From the NCBI GenBank assembly GCA_964587045.1, contig CAZPJY010000011.1, positions 1-47,603 on the forward strand: a stretch of 47,603 nt of DNA, in the 5' to 3' direction. Positions 5,072 to 26,453 of the stretch are shown here, piece by piece (within the stretch, counting starts at the first letter, position 1; every line of letters starts with the position of its first letter). This stretch comes from an uncultured Methanosarcinales archaeon (lineage in GTDB: Archaea > Nanobdellota > Nanobdellia > Woesearchaeales > CAZPJY01). Made by a program: the position numbers and the translations under genes. A model generated the notes under the pieces. That model saw only the letters and a list, made by a program, of their open reading frames with translations. It was not told the origin of the DNA and searched no databases.

Positions 5072-5089
5072 GTTGTCCAACAGGTTTTT

Positions 5090-5527: not shown

Positions 5528-5557
5528 ATTTTTATTCCTCTATCCGACAGTTCCATC

Positions 5558-6953: not shown

Positions 6954-6958
6954 GAGTA

Positions 6959-7770: not shown

Positions 7771-7774
7771 GTGC

Positions 7775-8676: not shown

Positions 8677-8678
8677 TA

Positions 8679-8762
8679 TGCGGGGGACGGGGTTCGAACC
8701 CGCGCAGGCACTAAGCCACTAGGCCCTCAACCTAGCCCGTTTGACCACTCCGGCACCCCCGC
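8679..8762 (-). tRNA. tRNA-Leu(GAG), CCA not encoded
   Basis: GCGGGGGTGCCGGAGTGGTCAAACGGGCTAGGTTGAGGGCCTAGTGGCTTAGTGCCTGCGCGGGTTCGAACCCCGTCCCCCGCA: anticodon stem CTAGG/CCTAG, loop TTGAGGG, long variable arm, GTTCGAA T-loop. Confidence 0.96.
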
Positions 8763-8770
8763 AGTGGTCT

Positions 8771-9571: not shown

Positions 9572-9572
9572 T

Positions 9573-11220: not shown

Positions 11221-11228
11221 TTTGGTTT

Positions 11229-11276
11229 TACCCGAGAAAGAGCTATAGCAACCCTATATGCGCGTTAACTCGGGTA
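11229..11276 (-). promoter_or_regulatory. Stem-loop in the 5' leader of the uS13 operon
   Basis: TACCCGAG(11229-36)/CTCGGGTA(11269-76) perfect inverted repeat with inner TATAG/CTATA; TTTTTAAA TATA-like box on the - strand near 11300-11307. Confidence 0.55.
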
Positions 11277-11300
11277 TGAGGAGGGGGAAACCGAAGTAGT

Positions 11301-12077
11301 TTAAAAAGCTTTCCCCTCGCCTAGGACATCGAAAGCCACACGGAAAATCTGCTCAAGACCGTTTCTCGTCAGATCGTGGTGGAACTCTGGCCTCCATTCC
11401 ATATCTGCCAAAGAATCACTTATGGCGAACAAAGTCCCGATCTCCACGTTATGGTATTTTGCAGCAGCGAAAAGGGCCGATGCCTCCATCTCTACAGTGA
11501 GTACCCCTTCATTTTGGTAGTGCTTGACCTCGTCTTCGGTCTCGCGAAAGACTGCATCGATGGTCCATGATGTCCCCTTTGTGTAATCAAGTTTGTTCTT
11601 TTTCAATGCACTTTCCAGCAAGTCCACCATGAGCTCAGAGCTTTGGGCATATTTCGAGGGAGGCATGTAATGATAAGATGTGCCTTCATCGCGTATCGCG
11701 CGATCGCAGAGCACCAGGCTTCCAATGTCTAGGTCACTCTGGAGTGCACCGGCGGTCCCTATTGACAAGAACCTTTCAGCTCCCCATGCAATCATCGTCT
11801 CGAGTATGTTGACAGCTGCAGGCGCACCAATTCCAAACCGTCCGATGATTCCGAAAGGTTGGCCTTCGAAGATATAGGTCTCTCCCGCAAAACCCGTGAC
11901 CTCTTTAACGGGGTGCTTTGTGATTATGTGATCGAGGAACTGCCTTGAATAGCTGAGGATCATGGACTTCGGGGCGAAGAAATCAGTGATCTTTTGTATC
12001 CTCCTTGCATAAGATATGAAGTCATCACCGGTGAAGATGGACTTCTTGTCATACTTTTCCTGATAGTTGGGGATCAT
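11301..12077 (-). CDS. Nucleoside phosphorylase (PNP/UDP family)
   Basis: GIGAP, IGTAGAL, AIRDEGTS.HY, WTIDA.FRET, VEMEASALFA; start at ATG 12077. Confidence 0.92.
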   Translation of the reverse strand: MIPNYQEKYDKKSIFTGDDFISYARRIQKITDFFAPKSMILSYSRQFLDHIITKHPVKEVTGFAGETYIFEGQPFGIIGRFGIGAPAAVNILETMIAWGAERFLSIGTAGALQSDLDIGSLVLCDRAIRDEGTSYHYMPPSKYAQSSELMVDLLESALKKNKLDYTKGTSWTIDAVFRETEDEVKHYQNEGVLTVEMEASALFAAAKYHNVEIGTLFAISDSLADMEWRPEFHHDLTRNGLEQIFRVAFDVLGEGKAF

Positions 12078-12151
12078 CCCTCGCTGGAATTTTTCTTTAA
12101 ATATAAAGCTTGACACAAGTTTTAAATATTGAGCTGAGATTTCCCAAGACT

Positions 12152-12352
12152 ATGGCACTAAAAGACTGCGGTTTTTGCTCAAACAAGGTTCCGGAAGGCG
12201 GACAGTGCAATGAGTGCGGATTTGTAGACGGCCTCAACCGGCAGCCCTCAGACCAGGAGTACCGGATAGCACGTGCAATAAACGACGAGCATGGGTATCC
12301 CCACTTCCAGAACCTGGACATGATGCTCTTGTATATGGACGAGGAGGAGTGA
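12152..12352 (+). CDS. Small zinc-ribbon protein (CxxC-x9-CxxC)
   Basis: MALKDCGFCSNKVPEGGQCNECGF; TTTAAATA about 25 nt upstream. Confidence 0.7.
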   Translation: MALKDCGFCSNKVPEGGQCNECGFVDGLNRQPSDQEYRIARAINDEHGYPHFQNLDMMLLYMDEEE

Positions 12353-15097
12353 TTATTCCCTCATTGATCTAATCATGTATTTCTCCTTCTCCTTCAATTC
12401 CATATTGATCACCACTTTTTGGACCTCGACGAAGAAGAGTACGGAGCTTGCCATGATGAGGATGGCAACCCACTCGACCATGTGCAAGGGAACAGTATGG
12501 AATATCTCCTGGCCGGCAGGCAGGTAAATCGCCATGAGCGTCAGCACTATCGATCCGAGAATTCCGATATTGACATACCTGTTGGAGAACGGGCCTATGT
12601 CAAAGATGGATTTATCCCCGCTTCGCGCATTGAATATGTGGAACAGCTCGAAGAATATCAACGTTGCAAAAGCCATGGTTCTGGCCTTGTCCAGGGTCCC
12701 GCTCTTGACGATGATCTCCCACAGGAACAAAGAGATGGTCCCGAGGGTGATGAGGGGGATGAACTCAGCCACACGGAGCATCATGAACTCGTTGATAATT
12801 CCTTCCTTCACCGGCCTCGGTTTCTGCTTCATTATGTGCTCCCTAGGTCTCTCGAGCGACAGCCCCATTGCAGGGAGGTCGCCGGTCACCAAATTCACGA
12901 ACAGGATCATGAGCGCTGTCAGGGGCAATGCGACTCCCATCATGACCGAGATGAATATTATGATGACTTCCGCGATGCTCCCGGTAAGCATATAGTAGAT
13001 GAACTTGACTATGTTTGAGTAGATGGTCCTCCCTTCTTCAATTGCCTTCACGATGGTGGTGAAATCATCATCGGACAGGACCATCTCGGCAGCCTCGCGT
13101 GCGACATCGGTCCCGGACTTGCCCATGGCTACACCTATATCTGCTTTCTTCAGCGCCGGAGAATCGTTGACCCCATCGCCAGTCATCGCCACGATGTGGC
13201 CGTGCTTTTGGAGCGCAGAGACAATCCTGAGCTTGTGATGGGGAGTCACCCGCGCGTAGACCGTGGTCTTCTCGACGTAGTGCAGGAACTGCTCCTCATC
13301 CAGCTCATCCAGCTCTGTGCCCGTGAGTACCGAATCGCCTTCGGCGAATATCCCCAAATCCTGGGCGACGGTCTTGGCAGTCACCTTGTGGTCACCTGTT
13401 ATCATGATGACCTTTATCCCTGCCTCATGGCATTTCTTGATTGAAACCTGGACCCCGGGTCTCGGAGGGTCCTTCATGCCGACGATGCCGACGAAGACAA
13501 GGTTCCTTTCGACATCGCCCCTCAAGTGGGAGCGGGGGATGTTGCGGTAGGCCAGAGCAAGCGTCCTGAGCCCCTGGGACGCGTACATGGTCGTAATGTC
13601 AAGCAGCTCCTGTCTCCCTTTGGCATCCATTGCGTGGATTCTGTTGTTACGGAGGATGTGCGTGCATTTGTGCAGGATGACATCAGGGGCTCCTTTTGTG
13701 TAGACCACACACCTCTTGCTTGTCATGTTCACGCTTGTCATGTATTTTCGGCTCGTGTCGAACGGTATCTCCCTGAGGCGCGGGGATTTCGCCTTGACCG
13801 ATTCGGTGGTTATCTTGGCCTTCTCACTGAGCACCAGCAATGAGCCCTCGGTGGGCATGCCAAACAGCCTCCATTCCCCGTCGACAAGGCTCAGCGTTGA
13901 ATTGTTGCACAGGATACCGATCTCGAGCATCTTGGATAGGTCCGGATCCTTGAGCGGATTGACCTTGACATCGCCTGAGATGAAGCTGCCGAATGGGTTG
14001 TACCCTTCACCTGTCACCTCAATGTGACGTCCGCCGACGAAGATGCGTTCGACCGTCATCTTGTTCTGCGTGAGCGTTCCAGTCTTGTCTGAGCATATGA
14101 CCGTAGCGGCCCCCAGCGTCTCGACCGCCGGCATCTTCTTTATGATGGCGTTCTTCTTGGCCATGGATTTCACTCCATGCGCCAGGATAACAGTCACGAC
14201 AGCCGGCAGGCTCTCCGGGATACCGGACACAGAGACTGCGGCTACGATAAGCAGCATTGACAGGAGCGGCGTGCCCTTGAACACACCTAACATGAACATG
14301 AAGGCGCATAGGAGTATGACCGCTACGGCAATCCTCTTGCTCATCTGGTCCAGTTTCCTCTGGATGGGGGTGGGCTCATCCCTGATGCCTGAGATCAGCT
14401 GGGCTACCTTCCCTATCTCGGTCTCCTCGCCGGTCTTGACCACCAACGCCACCGCCCTGCCCGTGACCACGTAGCTTCCAGTGAATATCATGTTGAACCT
14501 CTCTGCAAGCGGGGTCCCATCAGGCAGGGTCGAAACCTCCTTGGAAACAGGGCTCGACTCGCCAGTCAAGGCTGATTCATCAACCCTGAACTCGGTCACT
14601 TCAAGCACTCTGCCGTCGGTTGGCACATGGTCGCCGACCTTAAGAAGCATTACGTCCCCGGGCACGAGATCGCGGGCGTCGATAATCTTTGACGTGTTGT
14701 TCCTCCTGACTGTGGCCTGCTTGGTTGTCATATTCTTAAGGGCTTCCATAGAGCGTTCCGCCCGGAAGTCTTGAATGAAACCTATCGCAGCAGTGAAGGC
14801 AATGATGGAGAGAACAACCCAGAAATCGATCACTTCGCCGACGAAAAATGAGATAACCGCCACGCCCAGGAGTATGTATATGAAGATGTTCTTGAACTGC
14901 CGCATAAGTATGTCCCAAAAGCTCGCGCTTCTCCGGTCCTTGATTTCATTGGACCCATACTTCTCGAGTCTTGATTTGGCTTCAATCTCAGCAAGACCCT
15001 TGTGGGAGGTTCTCAACTCGGAAAGGAGCTCCTTTTCGCTGATGCTGTGCCATATTGGCTCCGTAGAATCGGGGGAGGACTGCTGAACCATCTTCAC
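12353..15097 (-). CDS. Cation-translocating P-type ATPase (P2A, Ca2+-type)
   Basis: LTGES, PESL, CSDKTGTLT, KGAP, DPPR, MITGD, TGDGVND, about 10 TM helices. Confidence 0.95.
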   Translation of the reverse strand: MKMVQQSSPDSTEPIWHSISEKELLSELRTSHKGLAEIEAKSRLEKYGSNEIKDRRSASFWDILMRQFKNIFIYILLGVAVISFFVGEVIDFWVVLSIIAFTAAIGFIQDFRAERSMEALKNMTTKQATVRRNNTSKIIDARDLVPGDVMLLKVGDHVPTDGRVLEVTEFRVDESALTGESSPVSKEVSTLPDGTPLAERFNMIFTGSYVVTGRAVALVVKTGEETEIGKVAQLISGIRDEPTPIQRKLDQMSKRIAVAVILLCAFMFMLGVFKGTPLLSMLLIVAAVSVSGIPESLPAVVTVILAHGVKSMAKKNAIIKKMPAVETLGAATVICSDKTGTLTQNKMTVERIFVGGRHIEVTGEGYNPFGSFISGDVKVNPLKDPDLSKMLEIGILCNNSTLSLVDGEWRLFGMPTEGSLLVLSEKAKITTESVKAKSPRLREIPFDTSRKYMTSVNMTSKRCVVYTKGAPDVILHKCTHILRNNRIHAMDAKGRQELLDITTMYASQGLRTLALAYRNIPRSHLRGDVERNLVFVGIVGMKDPPRPGVQVSIKKCHEAGIKVIMITGDHKVTAKTVAQDLGIFAEGDSVLTGTELDELDEEQFLHYVEKTTVYARVTPHHKLRIVSALQKHGHIVAMTGDGVNDSPALKKADIGVAMGKSGTDVAREAAEMVLSDDDFTTIVKAIEEGRTIYSNIVKFIYYMLTGSIAEVIIIFISVMMGVALPLTALMILFVNLVTGDLPAMGLSLERPREHIMKQKPRPVKEGIINEFMMLRVAEFIPLITLGTISLFLWEIIVKSGTLDKARTMAFATLIFFELFHIFNARSGDKSIFDIGPFSNRYVNIGILGSIVLTLMAIYLPAGQEIFHTVPLHMVEWVAILIMASSVLFFVEVQKVVINMELKEKEKYMIRSMRE

Positions 15098-15150: not shown

Positions 15151-15405
15151 TCACTCATTGACGAGGAAAACCTTGTCGTGCTCCCTCACGTGGTCGGAAA
15201 CTTTCATTCCGATACTCTGCCCAGCCTCAGCCTCTTCGACACTGGCGTGATCCACTTCCATTGAATCGACTTTTTGGGTCAGGTCAGTTGTGGCCCCCTT
15301 GATTTGAATGGTATCCCCGACCTTAAGGCTGCCATTTGTCACCTCGATGACAGCAACAGATATCTTACTAAAATAATGCGTTATCCTGCCTACTTCCTCA
15401 GCCAT
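15151..15405 (-). CDS. Small translation-elongation-factor-domain-II-like beta-barrel protein
   Basis: MAEEVGRITHYFSKISVAVIE...LKVGDTI.IKG.TTD..Q.V.SMEVDH..VEEA..GQ.IG; start at ATG 15405. Confidence 0.85.
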   Translation of the reverse strand: MAEEVGRITHYFSKISVAVIEVTNGSLKVGDTIQIKGATTDLTQKVDSMEVDHASVEEAEAGQSIGMKVSDHVREHDKVFLVNE

Positions 15406-15451
15406 GCAGCTCACCCCGACAAGAATTTCTATTCTATCTATAAAAAACTTT

Positions 15452-16006
15452 CTAGAAGTCCCTTCTGCGACGGAGAAATTGGACAAATCCCTCAGGTAAA
15501 ACCGGTTTTCCACGTTCCGCAACGTAGCGGTACGGCAGCTCCACAGCTTCGTCTTCCCTCAACTCAATCTCGGGTCTGTCCACATACTCAGGCTGCCTGC
15601 CTTCGAGGAGCATCGATGCGGCCAAAACAGCTGTGTCGGTCGACATCTGCATAGGTCCCAAGTTTCGGGTAGGGCAGTCCATATTCCTGGTGAGAGCCTC
15701 CCCAGTGCGCCCCCTCGGAGGGTGATCCCCCAAGACGCCCCCAAAAATCAGGAACTTGAAGGCTTTGCCCTTCGGACCCAGCGTCTTTTCTGCCTTGGGG
15801 TCCAGTATGCAAGCACCACTCAGACCCATCCCGACCACGCTCTCCTTTGCCACCGCCCCCAACCTGGAGAGCTTCTCATGGGCTTTCTTCCCCTTGACAT
15901 TTGTGAAAATGAGATTCTGCTTGCCCACAATCCGGGAGATGTGTGTGTACTCCATCAGGCTCCAGGCATATAATCTGCTGTCGAGATGCTCGATGACATA
16001 TTTCAT
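15452..16006 (-). CDS. Sfm1-like SPOUT SAM-dependent methyltransferase (COG2428)
   Basis: YVIEHL...WS..EY, ILDP.A, FGGVLGDHPPRGRT, RNLGP.QMSTD.A, E.VELPYRY; start at 16006 or 16030. Confidence 0.88.
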   Translation of the reverse strand: MKYVIEHLDSRLYAWSLMEYTHISRIVGKQNLIFTNVKGKKAHEKLSRLGAVAKESVVGMGLSGACILDPKAEKTLGPKGKAFKFLIFGGVLGDHPPRGRTGEALTRNMDCPTRNLGPMQMSTDTAVLAASMLLEGRQPEYVDRPEIELREDEAVELPYRYVAERGKPVLPEGFVQFLRRRRDF

Positions 16007-16030
16007 TCTGTTGGGGATTGTCGTTTTCAT

Positions 16031-16215
16031 ATTTTATAATGACTGTTATTATGTATATACAAAACGTTTTATTATTCAAGTAACCTGATTAAATATATAT
16101 TTTTAATTGATTCTTCTATCAAATAGAGGAAGAAGAGAGCACATCCAGGGATGACAAAGATCCGAGATAGTGACAACTCTAGAGCCGACGGGCTTAAAAC
16201 GTGGAGGTAAAGAAA
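16031..16215. promoter_or_regulatory. AT-rich divergent promoter region and long leader of the Ub-like operon
   Basis: Very AT-rich 16031-16110 with palindromes TGTATATACA and AAAACGTTTT; hairpin TTCTTCTAT-CAA-ATAGAGGAA at 16111-16131; SD GGAGGT at 16203-16208. Confidence 0.6.
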
Positions 16216-16707
16216 ATGGGAAGTTACGATACGGGTGATTACAGCCCGAGCAGCTACACTCCCCCAAGAAGGGAGACGCCTCGGAGGGAAGAGGAACCTC
16301 CCGAGACCAGCAACTACGACGCATCATTGCCTATCCTAATCGCTTTGGGCGGAGGACTCACGCCCCGCAGGATAGTCAAGAAGCTGGTCCCACCCGAGGA
16401 GTACCAGGGCAAGCATCTCATTGAGATAATCAAGTACATCATAAGCCCCGAGGTCTCCGCGACAGAGGACGAGATCAGCATCGCAGAGATGGTGCGCGTG
16501 AGGATGGAGAAGCCAGACTACAGGGCGATAATCAACGACTTGTACAACGTGCCCAACGAACGCCTCAGGGAGGACACCATGAACCAGTACCTCATCAGCA
16601 AGGAGCGCGAAACAGAGAGCGGCCCGATTCCGTTCAACTACCTGGACCTCGCAATAGTGAGCCACGATGAGGGCGGGAGGCGGAAATCATTGGAGGAAAA
16701 GCTTTAA
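16216..16707 (+). CDS. Candidate ubiquitin-like protein with GG motif and cleavable C-terminal tail
   Basis: SD-preceded ATG; low-complexity N-terminus; ends ...YLDLAIVSHDEGG-RRKSLEEKL; first gene of an E2/JAB/E1 operon. The Ubl fold is inferred. Confidence 0.6.
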   Translation: MGSYDTGDYSPSSYTPPRRETPRREEEPPETSNYDASLPILIALGGGLTPRRIVKKLVPPEEYQGKHLIEIIKYIISPEVSATEDEISIAEMVRVRMEKPDYRAIINDLYNVPNERLREDTMNQYLISKERETESGPIPFNYLDLAIVSHDEGGRRKSLEEKL

Positions 16708-16718
16708 AGTGATAGAAG

Positions 16719-18227
16719 ATGGCACAGCTCCCGACTCCTTACCTCTTCGAGTTCTCACACCCTGTCGTGGTGTATTATGGAAGGATACTTGTGCCATCTT
16801 CCACTTCTTCTTCCCAAAAACTGGAGCTTGGGAGCAAAAGCCTAAGCCTCGAAGAGGGAATCAGCATTCGGGAGCTCGAGGAGATGTACCGCTCCCACCA
16901 CAGCGATGCGATAGACACAATCAAGCAGGAGTTCATCGAAAACGAGCTGCGCCAGAGCTTCCTCTCAAGAGAGATAGTCGACTCGGCCCTTAGGGACAAC
17001 CGGACCCTATCATTCATCATAAATGATATCCTTCCCATCCTGACATCCAACAGCCTCGATTCAGCAATAGATGACGCTTTGACCGACACGCGCTCGGGTT
17101 CCGTAGACTACAGAGCCATGCTCGGAATCAGAAGCTCTTCCTCTGGATCGGCAGACGTGAGCAGTAGGGAATTAAACCAGGCCAAGAGGGAAGCAGAGAG
17201 GAGAGTCAAATCAGATTACCAACAGTACGAGAGGAGACGGGCAGGACGCAGGGACGACCTCGACGTCGCGATAAGCTATTACTTTGGCAGGCCGCAGGCG
17301 GGATGGCACAATGACGGGTCAGTATTCTCAGAATATGTTATCGGATCAAAAAACATTATGATACTCAATTCAAACATATACACACTCTATCCACCCAAGG
17401 AACTTCTCAGGCTTTTTAGCCAGGAGTTCGACAGGAACGCATATGATAACATTATCCGCATGTCTGACTCCGACCCGCGGGAGACCGCTGACTTCATCGA
17501 ATCCCATCCGGATGTGATCTCGCACCAAGCAAAATCCAGGATCGTCAACAAGCTCGCGGGCAGCAGGCTCACGATTGACGACAATTACTACATCCCGCTA
17601 CTCTCATCAGAAGGAAACGAAATCAAAATCAGATATTCCAAGCTGATAGAGCGCGAGCTGAAGCTCGAAGCTATAGAGGAAAACCAGTTCCGCACCGCCC
17701 AATACCAGATGATGCAGCAGGAACGTGAGACCCTCGCAAACCTCGCTACCAGGAGGAGGTTTGAGCACAACGGCGCTGGCTTCGAGAAAGCTGAGAGCGG
17801 CTACTACGTCTATGCGACTACTCCTGAATACGCGCTCAAAAGCCCCCACACTGGCACCTACTTCCGGTTCGGCAAAGCCAAGGTCGGGGTGAGAATCGAA
17901 TCCTACAATGGCTCATTTGATATAAGAGGGCCGATAGTGCTGAACCGGTACTCCCATCCTTTCCTGTATGGAAACCGTGAAAAGCAGAGCATCTGCCTTG
18001 GGGCCTTTGACTCCAGCAATTTCTCTAGGCTGAGACCTGCTGAGAAGGTCCAGGCGATGATCGCCCAGGGTATCAAGACCCTCATGATGGGCTACAGGTC
18101 AGGATCCAGTCCACACCATGAACTGGGCTCAGGATTCAGGTCCATCTCAAAGCAGGAGATTGAACGGAGGAAGATACCGGTGCTGAACGAATCCATGGTA
18201 AACGAATATGTGAGAGGAGGAATATGA
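16719..18227 (+). CDS. Large protein with helical/coiled-coil regions and a C-terminal E2 (UBC-like) domain
   Basis: Beta-rich stretch followed by SHPFLYGNREKQSICLG; Cys426 is the only Cys in 502 aa; adjacent to JAB and E1 genes. Confidence 0.65.
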   Translation: MAQLPTPYLFEFSHPVVVYYGRILVPSSTSSSQKLELGSKSLSLEEGISIRELEEMYRSHHSDAIDTIKQEFIENELRQSFLSREIVDSALRDNRTLSFIINDILPILTSNSLDSAIDDALTDTRSGSVDYRAMLGIRSSSSGSADVSSRELNQAKREAERRVKSDYQQYERRRAGRRDDLDVAISYYFGRPQAGWHNDGSVFSEYVIGSKNIMILNSNIYTLYPPKELLRLFSQEFDRNAYDNIIRMSDSDPRETADFIESHPDVISHQAKSRIVNKLAGSRLTIDDNYYIPLLSSEGNEIKIRYSKLIERELKLEAIEENQFRTAQYQMMQQERETLANLATRRRFEHNGAGFEKAESGYYVYATTPEYALKSPHTGTYFRFGKAKVGVRIESYNGSFDIRGPIVLNRYSHPFLYGNREKQSICLGAFDSSNFSRLRPAEKVQAMIAQGIKTLMMGYRSGSSPHHELGSGFRSISKQEIERRKIPVLNESMVNEYVRGGI

Positions 18228-19906
18228 AGGAATTAGACTTGCAAATCCTAGGCGAGCTCAAAGAGGAGAAGAAAGCTGAGGAGAGAATCTACAGGATAAC
18301 TCAAGGAGCGTACCAAAAGATTATGACTTACGCGCGCATCGCATCAGAGATCGCAGGCACTGGCATGGAATGTTACGGCTACCTGCTGGCGGACTCCGAG
18401 AGCCTGGACGGGGTCGTGAGGGACGCGTACTTCGCACCTGACCAGGACGCGCAATCAGCATATGTGAGGGTCAGCGAGGAAGGGGTCTACCAGGCGTCAA
18501 AAGAATTCGAGCCCATCGGAAAGTACATAGTCGGTTGGTGGCACTCCCACGGTGACATGACCACCTTCCATTCGGGGACTGACGATCGCAACTTCCTCCA
18601 GATACTGCACTCTGTTGCCCCACAGACGATGTACAGGAAGGAAGAGGTTGAACCGGTGCTGGACGGGGACGTTCTGTACTTCGACGAGTACAAGCTCAAG
18701 GTGGATGACGCGGACTCGCTGAAGAAGAACATGAGTCTTATCAAGAAGGCAAAGGACGACCCTTACGCGTTCTCGATGGTGGTAAACATCTTCGGAGAGT
18801 ACTATCTTGAGCACATCACCAAGAAGTTCAGGCATGCCACACGAAGCTACGAGGTCCAGCAGCCGACCCACCCTAAAATTGAGTTTGTCCAAGCAGAGGA
18901 CGACGTGACCTTCACCGCATCGGAGCTCGAGCAGGACATCTGGTCGAAGATAAACTTCAACGGAGCAGACACCCTCTATGACGCGCCGAGGCATTACAGC
19001 ACAGAAAAGTCCAGAATGGGATGGTTCGAGAGGCTGTGGTACGGCAAGCCCAGGTACCAAAGGCAAATAGAGTCATTTGCAAAAAAGGCATCGGAGCATG
19101 TGAACCAAGGCGGAAAATATGCGGGCTTCCTCTCAGGATTCATGCTTTCAGACAACCCCTACAGCGTCCTGTCCGGGGGCAGGACAGGAAGACCAAGGAA
19201 AGTCTCGGCAGATAAGGCATACAAGAACCTGACAGACGTGTTAGACAACCTTGACGACCCGATATATAGCAATGGCGGCAAGAAAATCGGAATCCAAGAG
19301 CAAAGAAACCTTCTCATATACAACTTCATCGAGGACTTCCTTGAGGATCCGGAAGGGAAAGTGATGAAATACCGGAAGGAAGCCGAGATCCTCAACGAGT
19401 GCTTCAGGAAAGCTGTCAACGCCACCAACGCCCTCGCAGAGTACGCCCTGGAGACCTACACGGATTACAGGAACGAGAGGGTCCACAAGTACACGAACCT
19501 GGTCTCGAACATCATGGCGAGACTTGACACCGCCAGATACGTCGACTTCAATGAGGAAGTCGTCAATGAGCTCAAGGGTTTCAGGAGCGGGGACTGGACC
19601 AACGACATGCCCCTGTACGCTCAGAGGAGGAAGGTTGTGGACCAGTTCGTCCATGATTACCTCGAAAACGCGGGTAGTGGCGGCAACGCGGATGAAGTGG
19701 CGTTCCTCGAAGGATTCACAAACCTTTACAGTTCTGGAGGTGATGTCGACTCCTTCCTCGAGGAGAAGCTTGGCATCTCACATGAAAGATTCAGGGATAC
19801 GGCCAAGGCGCAACCCAAGAGGAAAACTTACCGCGCAGAGCCGGTCAAGACTTACCCCCCTAACGATAAAGATATCTTCAGTTGGATGGAGGCCACTTTA
19901 CTATGA
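18224..19906 (+). CDS. JAB/MPN+ (JAMM) metallo-isopeptidase with a long C-terminal extension
   Basis: E49 in MECYGYLL; VGWWHSHGDMTTFHSGTDD = H107-x-H109-x7-S-x2-D120. Confidence 0.92.
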   Translation: MKELDLQILGELKEEKKAEERIYRITQGAYQKIMTYARIASEIAGTGMECYGYLLADSESLDGVVRDAYFAPDQDAQSAYVRVSEEGVYQASKEFEPIGKYIVGWWHSHGDMTTFHSGTDDRNFLQILHSVAPQTMYRKEEVEPVLDGDVLYFDEYKLKVDDADSLKKNMSLIKKAKDDPYAFSMVVNIFGEYYLEHITKKFRHATRSYEVQQPTHPKIEFVQAEDDVTFTASELEQDIWSKINFNGADTLYDAPRHYSTEKSRMGWFERLWYGKPRYQRQIESFAKKASEHVNQGGKYAGFLSGFMLSDNPYSVLSGGRTGRPRKVSADKAYKNLTDVLDNLDDPIYSNGGKKIGIQEQRNLLIYNFIEDFLEDPEGKVMKYRKEAEILNECFRKAVNATNALAEYALETYTDYRNERVHKYTNLVSNIMARLDTARYVDFNEEVVNELKGFRSGDWTNDMPLYAQRRKVVDQFVHDYLENAGSGGNADEVAFLEGFTNLYSSGGDVDSFLEEKLGISHERFRDTAKAQPKRKTYRAEPVKTYPPNDKDIFSWMEATLL

Positions 19907-21288
19907 GCGTAGAAGAGACACTCGACCGCTACTCCCGCCAAGAGCTGATAAGCGGGTGGGACCAAGGTAAGCTCGAGGGATCCAAGATAGCTATCGTCGG
20001 AGGCGGGATGCTCGGGCAGATGCTGGGCCTCACTATGAGTGCTCTCGGTTTTGGAAGCCTTGAAATTTATGGTGTTGGAGAGTCGATTTTCGGAAACGCA
20101 AAGGAAGCAGCGGCCTTCTACACCCGAGTCAACCCTCTGGTGACCGCAAAGGGATATGGACTAGATGTGTGGAAAAGCCCAGCATTGCTCGGAATCCATG
20201 ACCTGATAATTGACGCGAGCAACAACCCCGCGGCCAAGCTGGCGCTGGCAGACTACGCGATAGCAAACCACATCCACTTCCTGAGTGCATCGTCAGGCAA
20301 GGGTGAATCCAGGATGGGCATGCTTTCCAAAAGCAGGGTTTCTAGACGCATGCTCGAGAATATCCTATTCACAACGCTTGAAAATGAGGAGCAGGGGGCG
20401 TTGCCAAGCATGCTCATGGCAGGCGTGGTGGCAGAGGAGGCCCGCAAGTGCGTGATGCCGATCCCAAACGACGACACGCTTGAGGACATAATCATCTACA
20501 ACCTCATGTCGAAGAAGCGTTTCGACTCCTCAAAGGATGAGGATGAAGTCAAATTCGACGCCTTCAAGGACAAGAGGGTCCTGATGGTTGGCGCTGGGGC
20601 GCTAGGGACCTTCGCTGGGCTCGGGCTGGCGCTCTACGGCATAAGAGAGCTGGACATTGCGGACGGGGACACTGTGGAATCGACCAATCTGAACAGGCAG
20701 GTGCTGTACTATGAGTCCATTGGCGAGAGGAAAGCGGCAGCACTCGCCGAAAAGCTCACACGATTTGCACCCAACTCAAGAATTGTCCCCCTTGTCGAAT
20801 ACATCACGCCGGAATCAGAGCAAAAGATCGCCCGCAGGAAGTACGACCTAATCATCGAGACGGTCGATAACAATAAGGCTAGGGCGCTCATCAACTACTT
20901 CGCAAGGAAGTACAGGATTCCACTGATATCCGGAGGGACCAGCTTCTCAGCCGGCCAGACTGTAGTCTACAAACCTGGCGAGACCTCTTGCCTCAACTGC
21001 CAGGCCGACATCGACAAGCTCGCGGCAGCAAGCCACAGGCCGGCAAGCTGCATCTACGCCCCAGAACCGAGCGTGGTCATCTCCAACCAGATCATTGGAG
21101 CGTCTATAGTCGGGGAGGCTCTGTCATTATTCTCCCGCAAGGCCGTCAACGGAATCATCAAGTACGTCTCGCAGGAGAGCTACAGGCTTGGGATGCTGCC
21201 GACCAGTCCAGCCTGCGACTGCCACAAGGACGCCGGCGGCTGGATGGAAAAGATGGGATACCTGTATGCGGGTGAGCCTCATGGATGA
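19903..21288 (+). CDS. E1-like activating enzyme with two tandem ThiF/MoeB domains
   Basis: Domain 1: DRYSRQ...IAIVGGGMLG, no NLNRQ. Domain 2: VLMVGAGALG, DGDTVESTNLNRQ, VDN..AR, CLNC, SC, CDCH. ATGA overlap with the JAB gene. Confidence 0.92.
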   Translation: MSVEETLDRYSRQELISGWDQGKLEGSKIAIVGGGMLGQMLGLTMSALGFGSLEIYGVGESIFGNAKEAAAFYTRVNPLVTAKGYGLDVWKSPALLGIHDLIIDASNNPAAKLALADYAIANHIHFLSASSGKGESRMGMLSKSRVSRRMLENILFTTLENEEQGALPSMLMAGVVAEEARKCVMPIPNDDTLEDIIIYNLMSKKRFDSSKDEDEVKFDAFKDKRVLMVGAGALGTFAGLGLALYGIRELDIADGDTVESTNLNRQVLYYESIGERKAAALAEKLTRFAPNSRIVPLVEYITPESEQKIARRKYDLIIETVDNNKARALINYFARKYRIPLISGGTSFSAGQTVVYKPGETSCLNCQADIDKLAAASHRPASCIYAPEPSVVISNQIIGASIVGEALSLFSRKAVNGIIKYVSQESYRLGMLPTSPACDCHKDAGGWMEKMGYLYAGEPHG

Positions 21289-22075
21289 TTTGACTAGCAT
21301 CATGGACGACCTAAAGCAGGGGCAGAGGAGGAGCAACCTGGAGGACCTAAAGCTCGAAAGAGCTCCGACTCCTGAGCAGGCTGTCGGTTACATGCTGATG
21401 AGGTCGCCAAACGAGTCGAATCGCGACTACAGATACAACTTTGATCCCCTTGAGAACCTTTACATGAAGAAGTTGGTGTCAGAGAGGGTGCTGGAGAACA
21501 GGATCATCATGGACGCAGACGACTACTTCAAAGGTATAGTATTCCTGGACTACTACGCAAACGTCATCAGGGGCAGCACCTCCTTCCTCTCGGACATGTA
21601 CGAGATCGCCCAGCAGCTGGAAGGCTTGAGGCAGGACCTTGACCCGGACCTCAAGCTCATCGTTACATACACAAGCATTTCTTACATCTCACAGTTCCAG
21701 ATGCCGATGCGCTCGCAAAACACCACATCATCCGCTATCAGGAGGCATGAGAGCCTCAACACGATTATCAGCGACCCCTACATTTCATTGAGGGAGATCG
21801 ACCCGACCTACAGCAGCCTCGCTTCGATGGTTTGTTCTCAGTTCCAAGACGAGCGGATAAAAGGGATGATTCCAAATGCGACTGGAGCCTACGACCTCAA
21901 AGCACTAATGTTCACCGACGCCCTCCTTCCTTACATTGAGAGCAAGGAACTGGTCTACCACAGACTGGAGATCAATGAATATGCCAAGGCAGCCATGCGA
22001 GCGCTCGCTCTGGCGGCAAAGGAACTCTCATACGACACAATGAATGAGTATATAGAACGGCTGGGTGGTTCGTGA
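21281..22075 (+). CDS. Hypothetical protein within the Ub-like operon
   Basis: ATG 21281 preceded by GGTGA, overlaps the E1 stop; mostly helical-looking; no family recognised. Confidence 0.75.
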   Translation: MDDLTSIMDDLKQGQRRSNLEDLKLERAPTPEQAVGYMLMRSPNESNRDYRYNFDPLENLYMKKLVSERVLENRIIMDADDYFKGIVFLDYYANVIRGSTSFLSDMYEIAQQLEGLRQDLDPDLKLIVTYTSISYISQFQMPMRSQNTTSSAIRRHESLNTIISDPYISLREIDPTYSSLASMVCSQFQDERIKGMIPNATGAYDLKALMFTDALLPYIESKELVYHRLEINEYAKAAMRALALAAKELSYDTMNEYIERLGGS

Positions 22076-23457
22076 TGGGACAGGTAGAGACCCTAACGAA
22101 AAAAGCCTTCGAAAAGAGCAGGATCGGGTCGGTCGCTGAGCTCGAGAATGTCGCCGGAAGCGAGGACTCAGACATACTTTCAGTGGCGAATTCGATGACG
22201 TTGCGGTTCCAAAAGGCTCTCCATTGGGCAGCGGAACCGGCAGTCATCAACAATCTCTTCGAGGTTGGGATGCTCTTTGGATCGTACCCTGTCGTGAAGA
22301 ATCTGCAAGCGGACCGGATATCACAAAGCGAATATGAGTACTTCCTCAAGCACAAGGCGGTGCCTTATGTCCCCATGTACAGAGACGGCAACAAGTTCAA
22401 AATCGACGACAAGATGCTCGGAGACATCATCAAAGAATTAGGCGGCAAGGAGGCGTTGGGATACATCGAAGGGGCTGTCCTTGAGATGAGACGTGCTGGC
22501 AGCCGGAACCTGGTCAAGCAGCTGCTGCTGGCCTACCATTCAGGGAACGAGGGCCTTCGGAAGGAGGTCGAAAAAGACATGAAGAACGTGCCTAGAAGGG
22601 GCTCTCTGGAATCCCTAATCAGGGAGCACTGTGCAATGCAAGGCTACAAGTTCAGGGGGTTGCTGCAGGCAGGCGACGCGGACAGGTACTACCCGGTAGC
22701 GAGCAATCTCTTCCTTGCCACCGCAGATGGAGACGCAGTGGTGCTCAAGGAGAACCTCAAGCTGAACGTCGACTACTCCCGTTTCAACGGCTACACTATG
22801 GAAAAGGAGATCTACCAGCTCGGATTGAGCCATCCGTCGATGCTTAAGATGAAAAAGAGCTTCCTCCTAGACGGGCACGAGTTTCTCGAGCTGCCGTTCG
22901 TGGATGGCGAGAACCTCAAACGCTACACCAGGACCAGCTCCAGGCTGAGTGAGTCAGAGTCCTTCGATATCGCGATTCAGCTCGCCGACGTCCTGAGCCA
23001 TCTCCACAATAACGGAATCGTCTACATGGACGTCAAGGACAAAAACGTTCTGCTAAAGGGCGGCAGGGCGACGCTCATCGATTTCGGGATGGCACAGATA
23101 CTGGGAAAGAGAACTTATGCTCACTCACTTCTCTCGACCCCGAGATACGTTGCGCCTGAGATGGGGCTTCGCTTCAGGGCATGCCCCGAGACTGACACCT
23201 TCCAGCTTGGAATACTTCTCTATGAGCTGCTTTACCACGAGCATCCCTTCGCGACACAGGGTTTCCGGGAGGGCGACAGCTACAGGGAAAGCGAGATAGT
23301 CAAGTACGCTCTGCCGAACTGCCTGTCGCAGTGGCAGCCCAAAGGCAAGTATGACGGCTTCTTTTCCCAGGTCTTCGAGAAGGACCCGGCCAAAAGGCCT
23401 GACATGTTCTGGGCCAAGAAGGAGCTGGCCAGGCTCAGAGGTGATATCCTTGGATAG
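22072..23457 (+). CDS. Hanks-type Ser/Thr protein kinase with an N-terminal domain of about 190 aa
   Basis: VVLK, helix-C Glu (MEKEI), YMDVKDKNVLL catalytic loop, DFG, TPRYVAPE, DTFQLG, DP.KRP; start GTG 22072 or ATG 22075. Confidence 0.92.
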   Translation: MMGQVETLTKKAFEKSRIGSVAELENVAGSEDSDILSVANSMTLRFQKALHWAAEPAVINNLFEVGMLFGSYPVVKNLQADRISQSEYEYFLKHKAVPYVPMYRDGNKFKIDDKMLGDIIKELGGKEALGYIEGAVLEMRRAGSRNLVKQLLLAYHSGNEGLRKEVEKDMKNVPRRGSLESLIREHCAMQGYKFRGLLQAGDADRYYPVASNLFLATADGDAVVLKENLKLNVDYSRFNGYTMEKEIYQLGLSHPSMLKMKKSFLLDGHEFLELPFVDGENLKRYTRTSSRLSESESFDIAIQLADVLSHLHNNGIVYMDVKDKNVLLKGGRATLIDFGMAQILGKRTYAHSLLSTPRYVAPEMGLRFRACPETDTFQLGILLYELLYHEHPFATQGFREGDSYRESEIVKYALPNCLSQWQPKGKYDGFFSQVFEKDPAKRPDMFWAKKELARLRGDILG

Positions 23458-24058
23458 AGGACTCTACCTGGGAAGGTTCCAGATATTCCATAACGGCCAC
23501 CTCTCCATCATCGAACACCTGGATGCAGAGCCTGACGTCGATGCCTTCGTTATAGCCGTAGGGAGCAGCCAGTACGACCGCAACCACCCGAGCCCCGACG
23601 TCCCTGAAGCAGTTAACCCATTCACCATCGAGGAACGCACGGAGATGATAAGGAGGTCAATCGAAGGCCGGGTAAAGAAGAGGTTTGACCTAGTCCAGCT
23701 GATGGACCTGCACGTATGCGAGCAGTGGAAGAAGTACGTGCTCCACGAGGTTGGCGACTTCAGGTATTTCTACTCAAACAACAGGAGGGAAATTGCGCTC
23801 TTCCACGAAAAGATTGCGCGGCCCGTGCCAATCAAGGACCGCTACCACGCGCAGCTCATACGGGAGATGATCGCTGCGGGCGACCACTTTGAGAAGTACG
23901 TGCCTTCCGGGACTGCCTCGGTCGTGCGCGACTACGACTTGGTCAGGGTCCTAAAGGAGTTCTACAGCTCCCACCAGGAGGAGCTTGAGGAGATCCACCG
24001 GCTCGACAGGGGCAGAGGCATCCTCACCTACCCCCAGTTCAGGGGTGAGAGCACATGA
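23450..24058 (+). CDS. Nicotinamide-nucleotide adenylyltransferase-like (cytidyltransferase family)
   Basis: RGLYLGRFQIFHNGH, IAVGSSQ, NPFT.EER..MI, IRE.I; probable TTG start at 23450 after GAGGTGA (alternative GTG 23441). Confidence 0.88.
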   Translation: MDRGLYLGRFQIFHNGHLSIIEHLDAEPDVDAFVIAVGSSQYDRNHPSPDVPEAVNPFTIEERTEMIRRSIEGRVKKRFDLVQLMDLHVCEQWKKYVLHEVGDFRYFYSNNRREIALFHEKIARPVPIKDRYHAQLIREMIAAGDHFEKYVPSGTASVVRDYDLVRVLKEFYSSHQEELEEIHRLDRGRGILTYPQFRGEST

Positions 24059-25059
24059 GGGACAAGCCTAAGATAATCTGCACCCTCGGCACTACGACAG
24101 ACGACAAGGACGTCCTGAGGGACATGGTCAGGTACGGGATGAACTGCGCGCGCATCAACACCGCATACGCGGGGCTGCCTGAGTACGCGCAGAGGATCAG
24201 GATGGTTCGGGAGATCGCGGACATCCCTATCATGCTGGACCTAAAAGGGCCGCAGGTGAGGCTGCACAGCCTGGTCAACTACAGGATAAGGAAGGGCGAC
24301 AGGCTCATAATCGGCTTCAAGGACGAGCCGTTGGCGTTCTCACTTGACTTCTACGACGACATAGGAATCGACGACAGGATCTATTTCGAGAACGGGACCA
24401 TTGAAAGCGTCGTCACTAACAAGGCAGACGACAGGACCATTGACCTCGACATACTCGAACCTGGTGAGGGAACCCTAAGGAACCTCATGGGGGTGAACGT
24501 GCCGGGCAAGTACCTCAACGTACCACGCTTAAACGGTAAGGACCGGGCCGCCCTGAACTTCGCTGCAAATGAACACATAGAACACCTTGCGCTGTCATTC
24601 GTGCAGGACCCAAAAGACGTGCTCGGTCTTTACCGCCTGGCGGAAGGTCTGGGCTACCGGCCAAAAATCTGCGCAAAGATAGAGGACAGAATCGGAATCG
24701 AACGCCTCCCGGCCACGATAGCAGAAGCCAAAAGGGAGGGGATATGTCTCTCGGTCATGGTCGCAAGGGGGGATATGGGAATAGAACTACCTTACTATGA
24801 GGTCCCAAAGGCGCAGCAGGGGATAATCCGGACATGCAAAGATTACAACATCCCTGTGGTGGTCGCAACAGAGATGCTGGAGTCGATGAGGTGGAACTCG
24901 CGCCCCAGCAGGGCCGAAGTGGCTGATGTCGCCTTGGCAGCCTTGCAGGGCGCGGACGCCGTCATGCTCTCAGGCGAGACTTCGAACTCAAGACATCCTG
25001 CAGCGGCCGTGAGGGCGGCATCCGAGATTCTCAGGTATTATAGCAACTATAATAAATGA
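24055..25059 (+). CDS. Pyruvate kinase-like protein, A+B domains only (no C-terminal domain)
   Basis: KIICTLG, MLDLKGPQVR, GVNVPG, ALSFV, AKIE, MVARGDMG, ATEMLESM, PSRAEV.DV, DAVMLSGET; stops at 334 aa. Confidence 0.88.
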   Translation: MRDKPKIICTLGTTTDDKDVLRDMVRYGMNCARINTAYAGLPEYAQRIRMVREIADIPIMLDLKGPQVRLHSLVNYRIRKGDRLIIGFKDEPLAFSLDFYDDIGIDDRIYFENGTIESVVTNKADDRTIDLDILEPGEGTLRNLMGVNVPGKYLNVPRLNGKDRAALNFAANEHIEHLALSFVQDPKDVLGLYRLAEGLGYRPKICAKIEDRIGIERLPATIAEAKREGICLSVMVARGDMGIELPYYEVPKAQQGIIRTCKDYNIPVVVATEMLESMRWNSRPSRAEVADVALAALQGADAVMLSGETSNSRHPAAAVRAASEILRYYSNYNK

Positions 25060-26453
25060 GCGAGCCCACCCAAGGCGCAATGGTTATGACCAAGATTCTC
25101 GCAACCGTCGGCCCAGCGACAAGCTCTGAAGAGGTAGCAAGGAAGCTGATCGATGAGGGACTGGACGGCATAAGGCTTAACATGTCGCACGGGACGCACG
25201 AGGAGCACGCTCAGCTCCTGTCCACCTACAGAAGTCTCAAAGACGACCTCTTCATCATGGTCGACGTGAAGGGCAGGAAGCTCCGGCTTGGGGATTTCGG
25301 AGAAGGCAGGTCCGTCAGCCCAGGGGATGAGGTTGTCATAGACTCATCGCTTGACCCGTTCGATCCGGGAAACGCGTCTCGCCGTGAGATACCTATCCAA
25401 ATCGAGTCATTCCCTGTAAAGGAGGGTGACACGATACTGCTATCAGACGGCGAGGTGTGCCTGTCTGTCAAGCACATTGAGGGATCGCGGGTCATAACGG
25501 AAGTGGTTTTCGGCACGTCGATTGAGAGCAGGAAGGGAGTGAGCGTACCCGGTGTCGAGCTACCCCTCCCCTTCCTTTCCGATGATGACATCCGCGCCAT
25601 AGAGTTTGCAAAAACACACGACGTGGACTACATCGCCCTGTCTTTCGTGACCTCAAGGAAAGAGGTCGAAGAGGCCAGAAAGCTGGTCGGGGATTCCAAA
25701 ACACTTCTGATATCAAAAATAGAAAGCGCGCTCGCCGTTCCGAACTTCGACGAGATCATGGAAGCCAGCGACGGCATCCTCATCGCCCGCGGGGACCTAG
25801 GGGTGGAGCTCCCCATTGAGGACGTGCCCGGCAGGCAGAAGGACATGATCTCAAAGGCCAACATAGCGGGAAAGCCCGCAATCGTCGCTACACAGATGCT
25901 GGAATCGATGAGGTGGAATGCGAGGCCCACCCGGGCAGAGGTCAACGACGTGTACAACGCAGCGCTGGATGGGGCGGACTGCGTCATGCTGTCAGCAGAG
26001 ACATCTATAGGCAGGTACCCTGCGGAGTCCGTAAGGATCATGAACACCATTGTGCTGCGGGCCCAGCACAGGATAAGGGGCAGGCTGGAGAAGGTGGATG
26101 AGCACCAGGTCGTCAACATGGTCACCAACGCAGTCGTAGACGCCGCCAGTCATAGCGTTATCAAGGGCATCGTTTGCCTGACCCGCAGCGGCTACACCGC
26201 CAGGATGATCTCACGGTTCAGGCCGAGCAAGATGATTCTCGCAGCAACATGGGACCGTAAGGTCAGGAATCAGCTCGGGCTCGTCTGGGGGGTCTATCCC
26301 TTCATGTTCGAAGGTGAAGGCGACATCTCGCGTGTTTGCCGGCTGGCCAAGGATAAGGATTACTTGCAGGACGGAGACTTGATAGTTGCAGCAGCCGGTG
26401 TTGGCCCGACAGGTGAGGGAACGACCAACCTCATGAGGATTGAAAGGGTCTGA
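25056..26453 (+). CDS. pyk: Pyruvate kinase, full length
   Basis: TKILATVGP, RLNMSHG, SKIE, IARGDLGVE, ATQMLESM, PTRAEV.DV, C-domain TRSG.TAR.ISRFRP...TTN. Confidence 0.95.
   Translation: MSEPTQGAMVMTKILATVGPATSSEEVARKLIDEGLDGIRLNMSHGTHEEHAQLLSTYRSLKDDLFIMVDVKGRKLRLGDFGEGRSVSPGDEVVIDSSLDPFDPGNASRREIPIQIESFPVKEGDTILLSDGEVCLSVKHIEGSRVITEVVFGTSIESRKGVSVPGVELPLPFLSDDDIRAIEFAKTHDVDYIALSFVTSRKEVEEARKLVGDSKTLLISKIESALAVPNFDEIMEASDGILIARGDLGVELPIEDVPGRQKDMISKANIAGKPAIVATQMLESMRWNARPTRAEVNDVYNAALDGADCVMLSAETSIGRYPAESVRIMNTIVLRAQHRIRGRLEKVDEHQVVNMVTNAVVDAASHSVIKGIVCLTRSGYTARMISRFRPSKMILAATWDRKVRNQLGLVWGVYPFMFEGEGDISRVCRLAKDKDYLQDGDLIVAAAGVGPTGEGTTNLMRIERV

Follow-up and report, generated by a model that had tools for sequence, protein, structure and literature searches.

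A six-gene operon encodes a candidate single-chain E1

This study analyzed a candidate E1 (ubiquitin-activating-type) enzyme and its operon on contig CAZPJY010000011.1 of assembly GCA_964587045.1, the genome of an uncultured Methanosarcinales archaeon with a GTDB lineage in the order Woesearchaeales. The whole contig, positions 1 to 47,603 of the forward strand, is hereafter called the window. The E1 gene is the fourth of six same-strand (+) genes located at 16201-23457, and 4-nt overlaps were found at the junctions between the E2-like and JAB genes, between the JAB and E1 genes, and between the gene of an unknown protein and the kinase gene. The features of the operon (lengths in amino acids, aa) are as follows.

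16201..16707 (+): candidate ubiquitin-like modifier, 168 aa, ending in ...SHDEGG and then a 9-residue tail, RRKSLEEKL
16719..18227 (+): E2-like protein, 502 aa; catalytic module at about residues 345-480 with HPF (413-415)...Cys426; N-terminal part without assignment
18224..19906 (+): JAMM/JAB metallopeptidase, 560 aa; N-terminal catalytic domain with HSHGDMTTFHSGTD; C-terminal ~400 aa without assignment
19903..20523 (+): N-terminal half of the E1, residues 1-207; degenerate (inactive-type) adenylation domain that keeps R9-Y-S-R12-Q13
20524..21288 (+): C-terminal half of the E1, residues 208-461; active adenylation domain
21266..22075 (+): unknown protein, with a length of 269 aa if the ATG at 21266 is the start and 295 aa if a TTG at 21188 is; overlaps the end of the E1 gene and the start of the kinase gene
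22072..23457 (+): Ser/Thr protein kinase, 461 aa; kinase domain at about residues 218-445; N-terminal ~215 aa without assignment

The open reading frame (ORF) of the E1 at 19882..21288 (+) encodes 468 aa when counted from a TTG start. When translation is counted from the ATG at 19903, where the start shares 4 nt with the end of the upstream JAB gene, the protein comprises 461 aa.

The two halves of the E1 are ThiF-fold domains with complementary losses

The translation of the N-terminal half (N-half) contains LDRYSRQ at residues 7-13 and VGGGMLG at residues 31-37, and it lacks the D.D.V..SNL.RQ segment, the TNLNRQ segment being gone. The C-terminal half (C-half) contains VGAGALG (228-234), DGDTVESTNLNRQ (254-266), CLNC (363-366), C383, and CDCH (438-441), and KKRFDSS (204-210) occupies the place of the expected RYxRQ. 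The Zn site of the C-half is formed by C363, C366, C438, and C440, and Cys383, located 17 residues past the CxxC, is the candidate catalytic cysteine. An earlier first-pass annotation, made by a model from the letters and their ORFs, had described a single E1 with two halves at 19903..21288. According to that annotation, domain 1 keeps DRYSRQ and a Gly-rich loop without D.D.V..SNL.RQ, and domain 2 keeps the full motif set from GAGALG to CDCH with KRFDSS instead of YSRQ. The coordinates and every motif that it listed are present in the translation, and the loss from domain 1 also appeared in an alignment: the N-half alone matched MoeB in the PDB at E 7e-5, with a gap located exactly at MoeB's DFDTVSLSNLQRQ.

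We then compared the halves with known families. The Pfam family ThiF (PF00899; cut-off 28.1 bits) matched the whole E1 in two stretches at E 6.9e-53, the isolated N-half at E 2.7e-10 (40.2 bits), which places this half in the superfamily, and the isolated C-half at E 6.7e-42 (143.7 bits). MoeB (1.5e-18) and SAE2 (3.4e-18) were among the best sequence matches of the C-half. Because plain BLASTP gave no significant match between the two halves (E 2.5), a profile comparison was needed, and hhalign aligned the N-half profile to the C-half profile with a probability of 99.5 and an E value of 1.2e-22. Both halves of the E1 are of the ThiF fold.

Conservation was counted in an alignment of 101 full-length members of the E1 family. 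In the N-half, R9 was conserved in 97/101, R12 in 100/101, and Q13 in 99/101 members. In the C-half, G230, G232, D254, N262, R265, Q266, K277, D322, R327, and C383 were invariant (101/101). The hhalign alignment placed Asn107 of the N-half (86/101) opposite the invariant Mg-binding-type Asp322 of the C-half, and columns 209/210 of the C-half, the place of the second Arg and the Gln of RYxRQ, were variable. The N-half has thus lost the nucleotide and Mg residues and the C-half has lost RYxRQ, so that the decay of the two possible active sites is complementary and one complete site is therefore left. The Zn cysteines C363, C366, C438, and C440 were present in 93-100 of the 101 members; they were lost in a Desulfobacterales/Aenigmatarchaeota subgroup, in which C383 was kept.

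The predicted structure packs the two domains as a pseudo-dimer

The AlphaFold2 model of the E1, for which the 101-sequence alignment was used as input, had a mean predicted local distance difference test score (pLDDT) of 95.1 and a predicted template modeling score (pTM) of 0.94. The top Foldseek matches of this model were all UBA7, UBA1, or UBA6, with UBA7 (8oif) first at 7.9e-24 and the range extending to 1e-20. Structural superposition with VIA-align gave the following rows (rmsd, root-mean-square deviation).

UBA7, UBA6, and UBA1, single chain: model residues ~4-446; Z 33-35; rmsd 2.3-2.9 A over 398-426 residues; identity 17-20%
BilD 8tz0_A: model residues 5-447; Z 33.7; rmsd 3.4 A over 391 residues; identity 13%
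BilD 8tyz_A: model residues 5-451; Z 33.6; rmsd 3.7 A over 385 residues; identity 13%
SAE2 and MoeB, single domain: model residues ~213-455 (C-half only); Z ~26; rmsd 2.4-3.0 A over 215-223 residues; identity 25-30%

Rows within one Z unit are ties, and enzymes of the UBA1 type and BilD therefore fit the model equally. Because the whole chain superimposes on UBA7, UBA6, UBA1, and BilD as one rigid body, the model supports an inactive and an active adenylation domain packed as a UBA1/BilD-like pseudo-dimer. The first-pass annotation had proposed such a single-chain pseudo-dimeric E1 and had suggested structure prediction as a check; the confident model agrees with the proposal and speaks against a failure of domain 1 to pack on domain 2. 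The crossover region of the model shows two short helices. The N-terminal helix carrying R12 lies inside the structurally aligned range, whose end pairs model residue 3 with Uba1 residue 12. MoeB Arg14 and yeast Uba1 Arg21 are residues that we take to be the equivalents of Arg12, and the range ends of the modeled superposition are consistent with R12 matching Uba1 Arg21.

A minimal variant of a layout known from eukaryotes and BilD

Until 2023, E1s that combine a dead adenylation domain with a live one, whether single-chain or heterodimeric, were taken as a eukaryotic hallmark. The layout of an inactive adenylation domain (IAD) followed by an active adenylation domain (AAD) had accordingly been called eukaryotic in the first-pass annotation. 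The likeness to UBA1 stood; the exclusivity is outdated, since BilD also has this layout and fits the model equally (8tz0_A, Z 33.7). The layout is thus not unique to eukaryotes, and the window E1 is an archaeal minimal variant of a layout known from eukaryotes and BilD, not a first. On the basis of the model, it would work like the canonical E1 core and like BilD.

The differences from the canonical enzymes lie in what is missing. UBA1, UBA6, and UBA7 share with the window E1 the order of IAD and then AAD in one chain and an RYxRQ-type N-terminal helix on the inactive domain, but they comprise ~1000 residues with FCCH, SCCH (the catalytic Cys domain), a four-helix bundle, and UFD, whereas the window E1 has 461 residues and none of these. 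Residue 366 and Cys383 lie 17-26 residues apart in every one of the 101 members, and 21 residues follow C440 in the window E1 (family median 20, maximum 104). Because the crossover span is this short and the median tail is 20 residues, no CYS/SCCH, FCCH, or UFD domain is present in these members of the family, and the family is placed outside the UBA1 type since CYS and UFD domains were looked for and not found. SAE1/SAE2 and NAE1/UBA3 likewise pair one inactive with one active adenylation domain, and SAE2 has the common Zn site; in these enzymes, however, the domains are on two polypeptides, and Cys and UFD domains are present.

BilD was compared from the available portions of two reports. 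The first describes BilD, the E1 of bacterial BilABCD (Type II structure, PDB 8TZ0/8TYZ), as having IAD and AAD in one chain, gives the order of BilABCD as ubiquitin-like modifier (Ubl)-E2-JAB-E1, and states that the Bil Ubl has a short tail past a conserved Gly that is removed by the JAB peptidase (10.1101/2023.09.26.559546). In both, as far as they were available, BilD carries a mobile ~80-residue helical CYS domain in the crossover loop (10.1101/2023.09.26.559546; 10.1101/2024.11.21.623953). The window keeps the four genes in the same Ubl-E2-JAB-E1 order, and its E1 is likewise a single IAD-AAD chain that is fitted by BilD at Z 33.6-33.7. In contrast to BilD, the window E1 family has no CYS domain, its span from residue 366 to Cys383 being 17-26 residues, and the structural identity is 13%; the family is for these reasons placed outside the BilD family as defined. 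The hosts of the present family are mainly DPANN archaea and some bacteria, not Rhizobiaceae; extra genes occur here, namely the kinase in the window and ClpX-like AAA+ ATPases in relatives; and the Bil E2 has a CEHH pattern where the window E2-like protein has HPF...C. PADLOC 2.0.0, in whose library the presence of Bil models is uncertain, gave generic Cap2 E1 and Cap3 JAB matches only, and NCBIfam and PADLOC together found generic Cap2, ThiF, and MoeB similarity for the E1.

MoeB, ThiF, Uba4, and archaeal UbaA are closest by sequence to both halves and also have a short crossover loop with a Cys, and MoeB has a Zn site of the CxxC...CxxC type. They are, however, single-domain symmetric homodimers with two active sites that act mainly in sulfur transfer without an E2, whereas the window E1 is a fused asymmetric pair whose first domain lacks the nucleotide motif and whose gene is linked to an E2-like gene. 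Bub (6E) and CBASS Cap2/Cap3 are also prokaryotic E1/E2/JAB machinery; the Cap2 and BubB E2 modules structurally match the window E2-like protein (Z 6.3 and 6.1), and Cap2 models match the window E1 C-half. According to the portion of the report available, the Bub and Cap2 E1s are homodimeric and fused to a peptidase or E2, and Bub acts via oxyesters without a catalytic Cys (10.1101/2024.11.21.623953); the window system differs in its invariant Cys and its separate genes. The Caldiarchaeum and Asgard operons, compared by their description in the available part of one source, also combine archaeal Ub-like, E1-like, E2-like, and JAB/Rpn11-like genes; the Caldiarchaeum E1-like protein has a Cys domain of ~60 residues and a RING E3 is present (PMC11354881), whereas no RING gene was seen in the window operon. 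A search of the open literature found no published archaeal IAD-AAD E1 and no such operon with an AAA+ ATPase or kinase, which is weak evidence; the Bil operon lists in supplementary tables could conceivably include relatives of the window system.

Partner proteins encoded in the operon

The small protein satisfies the expectation of an exposable C-terminal Gly-Gly, having DEGG followed by the 9-residue tail, and its mature form is predicted from the sequence to end at Gly159. It aligns with the small proteins located at the same position in the operons of relatives, and among its homologues in related loci, 28/30 profile matches end in GG plus 0-10 residues, many with ...AIKPQEGG. The profile of the small protein found nothing below E 1 among PDB sequences, and in a weak-threshold Pfam scan, none of eight homologues (0/8) matched any ubiquitin-type family. 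An NCBIfam RFC match of the small protein was dismissed, its 18.6 bits standing against a cut-off of 280.

For the E2-like protein, H413 and C426 were invariant in 28/28 sequences. No Pfam match was found. The AlphaFold2 model of this protein (pLDDT 82.8) was compared in an unbiased search with 48,161 chains, and the first 15 of the best 50 rows were E2/UBC-type at Z 5.9-6.6, which are weak scores; they included UbcH10 (Z 6.6), Ube2K (6.4), UbcH5b (6.3), the Cap2 E2 module (6.3), and BubB (6.1). The motif and these scores together make the 502-aa neighbor a likely E2, and the assignment is graded no more firmly because the structural scores are weak. The sole PDB match of the E2-like profile, a tRNA nucleotidyltransferase-related protein (2.8e-4), fell in the helical middle part and was taken as spurious.

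The JAMM peptidase matched Pfam Prok-JAB over residues 44-127 (E 3.1e-08; 33.9 bits against a cut-off of 25), and its gene was also matched by the PADLOC JAB models. The zinc motif H-x-H-x7-S-x2-D (HSHGDMTTFHSGTD) was read in the translation, and the protein belongs to the JAMM/MPN+ family. The kinase matched Pfam Pkinase at E 6.1e-31 and has YMDVKDKN and DFG motifs in its translation; its best PADLOC and NCBIfam matches were generic (PD-T4-6, 1.2e-29; MAD6, 5.1e-27, with 94.6 bits far under the cut-off of 460). The 269/295-aa protein had no Pfam, NCBIfam, PADLOC, or ESM Atlas match, and a comparison by hhalign with the 250-296 aa proteins that follow the E1 in four relatives gave a probability of 1.5, that is, no detectable relation.

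A promoter and terminator scan found 4 promoter-like sites against 4.7 expected; the consensus is bacterial and the host archaeal, which makes this count uninformative. Three DNA metagenome runs contain part of the stretch, and no RNA sequencing run is listed as containing it. Downstream of the kinase gene, at 23351-24058 (+), is a cytidylyltransferase-like gene in which an HxGH-type motif (GRFQIFHNGH) is encoded; the longest ORF of this gene overlaps the kinase end by ~100 nt, and it may be co-transcribed with the operon. On the other side (15151-15522 and 15452-16030, minus strand), upstream of the operon and divergent from it, a gene for an SFM1-like protein arginine methyltransferase shares ~70 nt at its 3' end with a small EF-Tu-domain-2-like ORF.

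Size of the family and gene neighborhoods of its members

A word-based search found 366 relatives of the E1, the closest at 47% identity, and the named ones belonged to Woesearchaeota, Nanoarchaeota, or 'Euryarchaeota'. An exhaustive HMMER search with the N-half profile yielded 220 cluster representatives at E<=1e-30; among the best 150 of these, 127 were at least 380 aa long, and all 127 had at least two matched stretches. The family thus comprises at least 220 clusters at 50% identity, with lengths of about 410-535 residues, and its hosts are mainly DPANN archaea together with Desulfobacterota-type and other bacteria. None of 7,999 candidates was a longer or fused form, which is weak evidence. 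In viral contigs, the C-half had no more than 2 partial matches and tandem members were absent, a result that says little either way. A candidate split form, with the inactive domain alone, in one genome (G030) was ruled out; it is an ordinary full ThiF protein (4.4e-42).

Gene neighborhoods were examined in 36 related loci, defined as those with a tandem E1 ORF of at least 380 aa; several of the misses among them are loci cut by contig ends. The neighbors of the tandem E1 included a JAB protein in 29 loci, an E2-like protein in 28, and a small GG-ended protein in 28. A ClpX/HslU-like AAA+ ATPase (AAA_2 plus ClpB_D2-small) was present in 20/36 loci and often adjoined the JAB gene (L005, L008, L010, L014, L015-L018, L021, L022, L024, L030, L032, L034-L038, and L041), whereas the ATPase upstream of the small protein in locus L002 is PAN-like and has a proteasomal OB domain. 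The Ubl-E2-JAB-E1 order was shared by the window and L001, L002, L005, L007, L008, L010, and L011, and it occurs in the DPANN loci and in one Thermoflexales locus; the Desulfobacterales-type loci had the order E1-Ubl-E2-...-AAA-JAB or Ubl-E2-AAA-JAB-E1. The window's kinase and 269-aa protein were not found in the other related loci. Locus L004 contains two tandem E2-like genes and two JAB genes around its tandem E1 (5073-8356; 321-1772 / 8356-10200), which suggests that the module was locally duplicated there.

Genome context and a second copy

The genome measures 1.6 Mb, is scored 100% complete, and comprises 50 contigs, of which the window is one in full. The other genes of the window, which include a cluster with S13, S4, and an Rpb3-like protein, S9, an HTH_10 regulator, transporters, and two pyruvate kinases, form an ordinary chromosomal context. 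The pyruvate kinase genes are in tandem at 24055-25059 and 25056-26453 with a 4-nt overlap; the first product (334 aa) has the barrel domain only, and the second (465 aa) adds a C-terminal alpha/beta domain. At 2403-5039 (-), a leucyl-tRNA synthetase reaches 953.6 bits with TIGR00396, the model of the bacterial type (cut-off 548.4), and falls below the cut-off of the archaeal-type model (308.9 against 648.5 bits), on a contig that is otherwise archaeal-looking.

Two further E1-like genes occur in the same genome. A single-domain ThiF is encoded on contig C7, separate from the tandem E1, and a second tandem E1, with 32% identity (3e-61) to that of the window, lies on contig C6 in a paralogous operon (locus L090, C6:7000-26999; genes at 7496-12877). 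In this operon, the small protein has YEDGG+AGY at its end, the E2-like protein (8e-5) again shows HPF...C, and a JAB-like protein (3e-8) is encoded along with the tandem E1. Further genes of the operon are those of a second JAB-like protein, a tetratricopeptide-repeat (TPR) protein, and a pair of transglutaminase-like proteins; upstream lie genes for an AAA ATPase and for an Mrr-type nuclease. The 388-aa protein of the C6 paralog, compared by hhalign with the 250-296 aa proteins after the E1 in relatives, gave a probability of 0.2.

Across 41 genomes of the order (40 sampled and the window's own; all of different genera, 0.6-2.1 Mb, some incomplete), a full-length tandem E1 was found in 9, with up to 4 copies per genome. 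The small size of the genomes and the names borne by the closest homologues suggest that the host is a DPANN (Woesearchaeota-like) archaeon. Genome G012 has four copies (an example is G012:C16:5917-7365), of which one is interrupted by an in-frame TAG and an in-frame TAA and probably represents a pseudogene.

Proposed mechanism and role

On the basis of these findings, we consider it probable that the 461-residue protein is an E1-type enzyme whose two ThiF-fold adenylation domains form a predicted UBA1/BilD-like pseudo-dimer, and that its likely substrate is the GG-ended small protein, encoded three genes upstream, which would be activated and then passed to the E2-like protein. In the mechanism that we propose, removal of the tail by the JAMM peptidase would expose Gly159 of the small protein. 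The C-half of the E1 would bind ATP-Mg and adenylate Gly159, and Arg12 of the N-half would complete the single active site, replacing the second subunit of a MoeB-type homodimer. Cys383 would then take the modifier as a thioester, and Cys426 of the E2-like protein would receive it and hand it to target lysines. The JAMM peptidase could also reverse the conjugation, and the kinase and the unknown protein in the window, like the ClpX-like AAA+ ATPase in relatives, may constitute an effector or regulatory arm.

Several observations weigh against this reading. For thioester chemistry and for recruiting the E2, canonical E1s and BilD rely on a CYS domain and a UFD, and the E1 family has neither. 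The small protein, a putative beta-grasp protein, has no Pfam, NCBIfam, PDB, or ESM Atlas match, and Foldseek found nothing at E<=0.001 with the E2-like model, for which structural Z scores reached only 6.6. The placement of Arg12 at the ATP site follows from the rigid-body fit of a model, and AlphaFold's knowledge of UBA1 may have biased that model. The operon also stands amid housekeeping genes, outside any defence island, and PADLOC recognized no known system at the locus.

In an alternative reading, the protein would be an adenylase of the MoeB/ThiF/UbaA type with a sulfur-carrier or biosynthetic function that only adenylates or thiocarboxylates a small carrier, with no E1-to-E2 relay and no conjugation. 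A catalytic Cys in a short crossover loop without a CYS domain is what ThiF and UbaA have, and both halves are nearest by sequence to MoeB, ThiF, and Uba4 (MoeB at 1.5e-18 for the C-half and at 2.5e-22 for the N-half profile). However, the window E1 contains no rhodanese domain and has no sulfur-metabolism neighbor, and the genome encodes a separate single-domain ThiF. An adenylase of this kind working without a thioester is unlikely because the E2-like protein with its invariant His and Cys, the JAMM peptidase, and the small protein with GG plus a tail are conserved neighbors in relatives, and we regard this alternative as very improbable. Retaining the reading of an E1 that feeds an E2, we lean slightly toward conflict or defence as its role over a regulated unfolding or turnover of host proteins.

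A role as a Bil-like antiviral module, in which the small protein would be conjugated to virus proteins and the kinase or AAA+ ATPase would be an added effector, is plausible, and we hold it tentatively. The gene set and order are those of BilABCD, whose E1 is also IAD+AAD, and the spread is patchy, with full-length copies in 9/41 genomes of the order and up to 4 in one genome. The second copy shares a 20-kb stretch with an Mrr-type nuclease and an AAA ATPase. Defence kinases are the best PADLOC matches of the window kinase, but this is generic kinase similarity far below the cut-offs, and no PADLOC or NCBIfam defence model recognized the locus. The window copy is, moreover, flanked by ribosomal, RNA-polymerase, pyruvate-kinase, and transporter genes; the absence of members from viral contigs carries little weight either way. 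That chromosomal housekeeping context would suit a tag-and-unfold or tag-and-regulate pathway of ubiquitin/SAMP-like proteostasis, in which AAA+ unfoldases and the JAMM peptidase would handle the conjugates and phosphorylation would add control in the window copy. Such a pathway is possible as well, if a little less so: a ClpX/HslU-like AAA+ ATPase occurs in 20/36 loci, often adjoining the JAB gene, and L002 has its PAN-like ATPase upstream of the small protein, yet the window operon has no AAA+ gene. A full-length copy is absent from 32/41 sampled relatives, some of whose genomes are incomplete, and patchy absence combined with multi-copy genomes is unusual for core proteostasis.

Origin of the tandem layout

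To place the halves relative to each other, a quick IQ-TREE analysis was performed with 25 N-halves, 25 C-halves, and 20 single-domain relatives. The N-halves were on one side of a branch with a Shimodaira-Hasegawa-like approximate likelihood-ratio test (SH-aLRT) value of 88, the C-halves of the family formed a clade (96) that included one truncated row, and the single-domain enzymes formed a separate clade (99). The main groups were common to the N-half and C-half subtrees; six N-half rows were long-branched, and three were at the base of the other side. This sequence-based tree fits one duplication or fusion that would have occurred before the family radiated. The N-half profile matched MoeB (2.5e-22), Uba4 (8.6e-18), and ThiF (1.5e-17) ahead of NAE1 (1.9e-12) and SAE1 (2.6e-8), and BilD was not among the best 60 of its 92 matches, which hints at an origin separate from the eukaryotic duplication.

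The tandem layout may thus be convergent, the product of a separate duplication of a MoeB-like gene that was independent of the eukaryotic and BilD duplications; we entertain this as a possibility without favoring it firmly. By profile score, active single-domain enzymes are nearer to the N-half than the inactive domains of eukaryotes are, the family shares no CYS, FCCH, or UFD domain with the eukaryotic or BilD E1s, and the structural identity of the window E1 to BilD is only 13%. On the other hand, profile ranks are weak evidence because fast-evolving inactive domains lose signal, and the window E1 has the inactive-first domain order and the geometry of UBA1 and BilD. In the tree, the N-halves are not grouped with the family's own C-halves, which fits neither origin clearly. 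An IAD/AAD fusion of the same origin as the eukaryotic one would make the E1 family a stripped-down canonical core within an old Ubl/E2/JAMM/E1 module, often with an AAA+ unfoldase and widespread in DPANN, and would place the logic of tag, unfoldase, and JAMM in non-Asgard archaea before eukaryotes; we judge this broader scenario unlikely.

Implications

The E1 family brings the IAD-AAD layout to archaea, in its smallest form so far, and offers a compact model for asking what the inactive domain does. A further question that it opens to study is how an E1 that has no CYS domain or UFD makes a thioester and feeds an E2. The N- and C-halves are usable in E1 phylogenies that address whether the duplication happened once or several times. 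The partners of the E1, namely the kinase in the window and the ClpX-like ATPases elsewhere, suggest that protein tagging in prokaryotes has an output not yet described.

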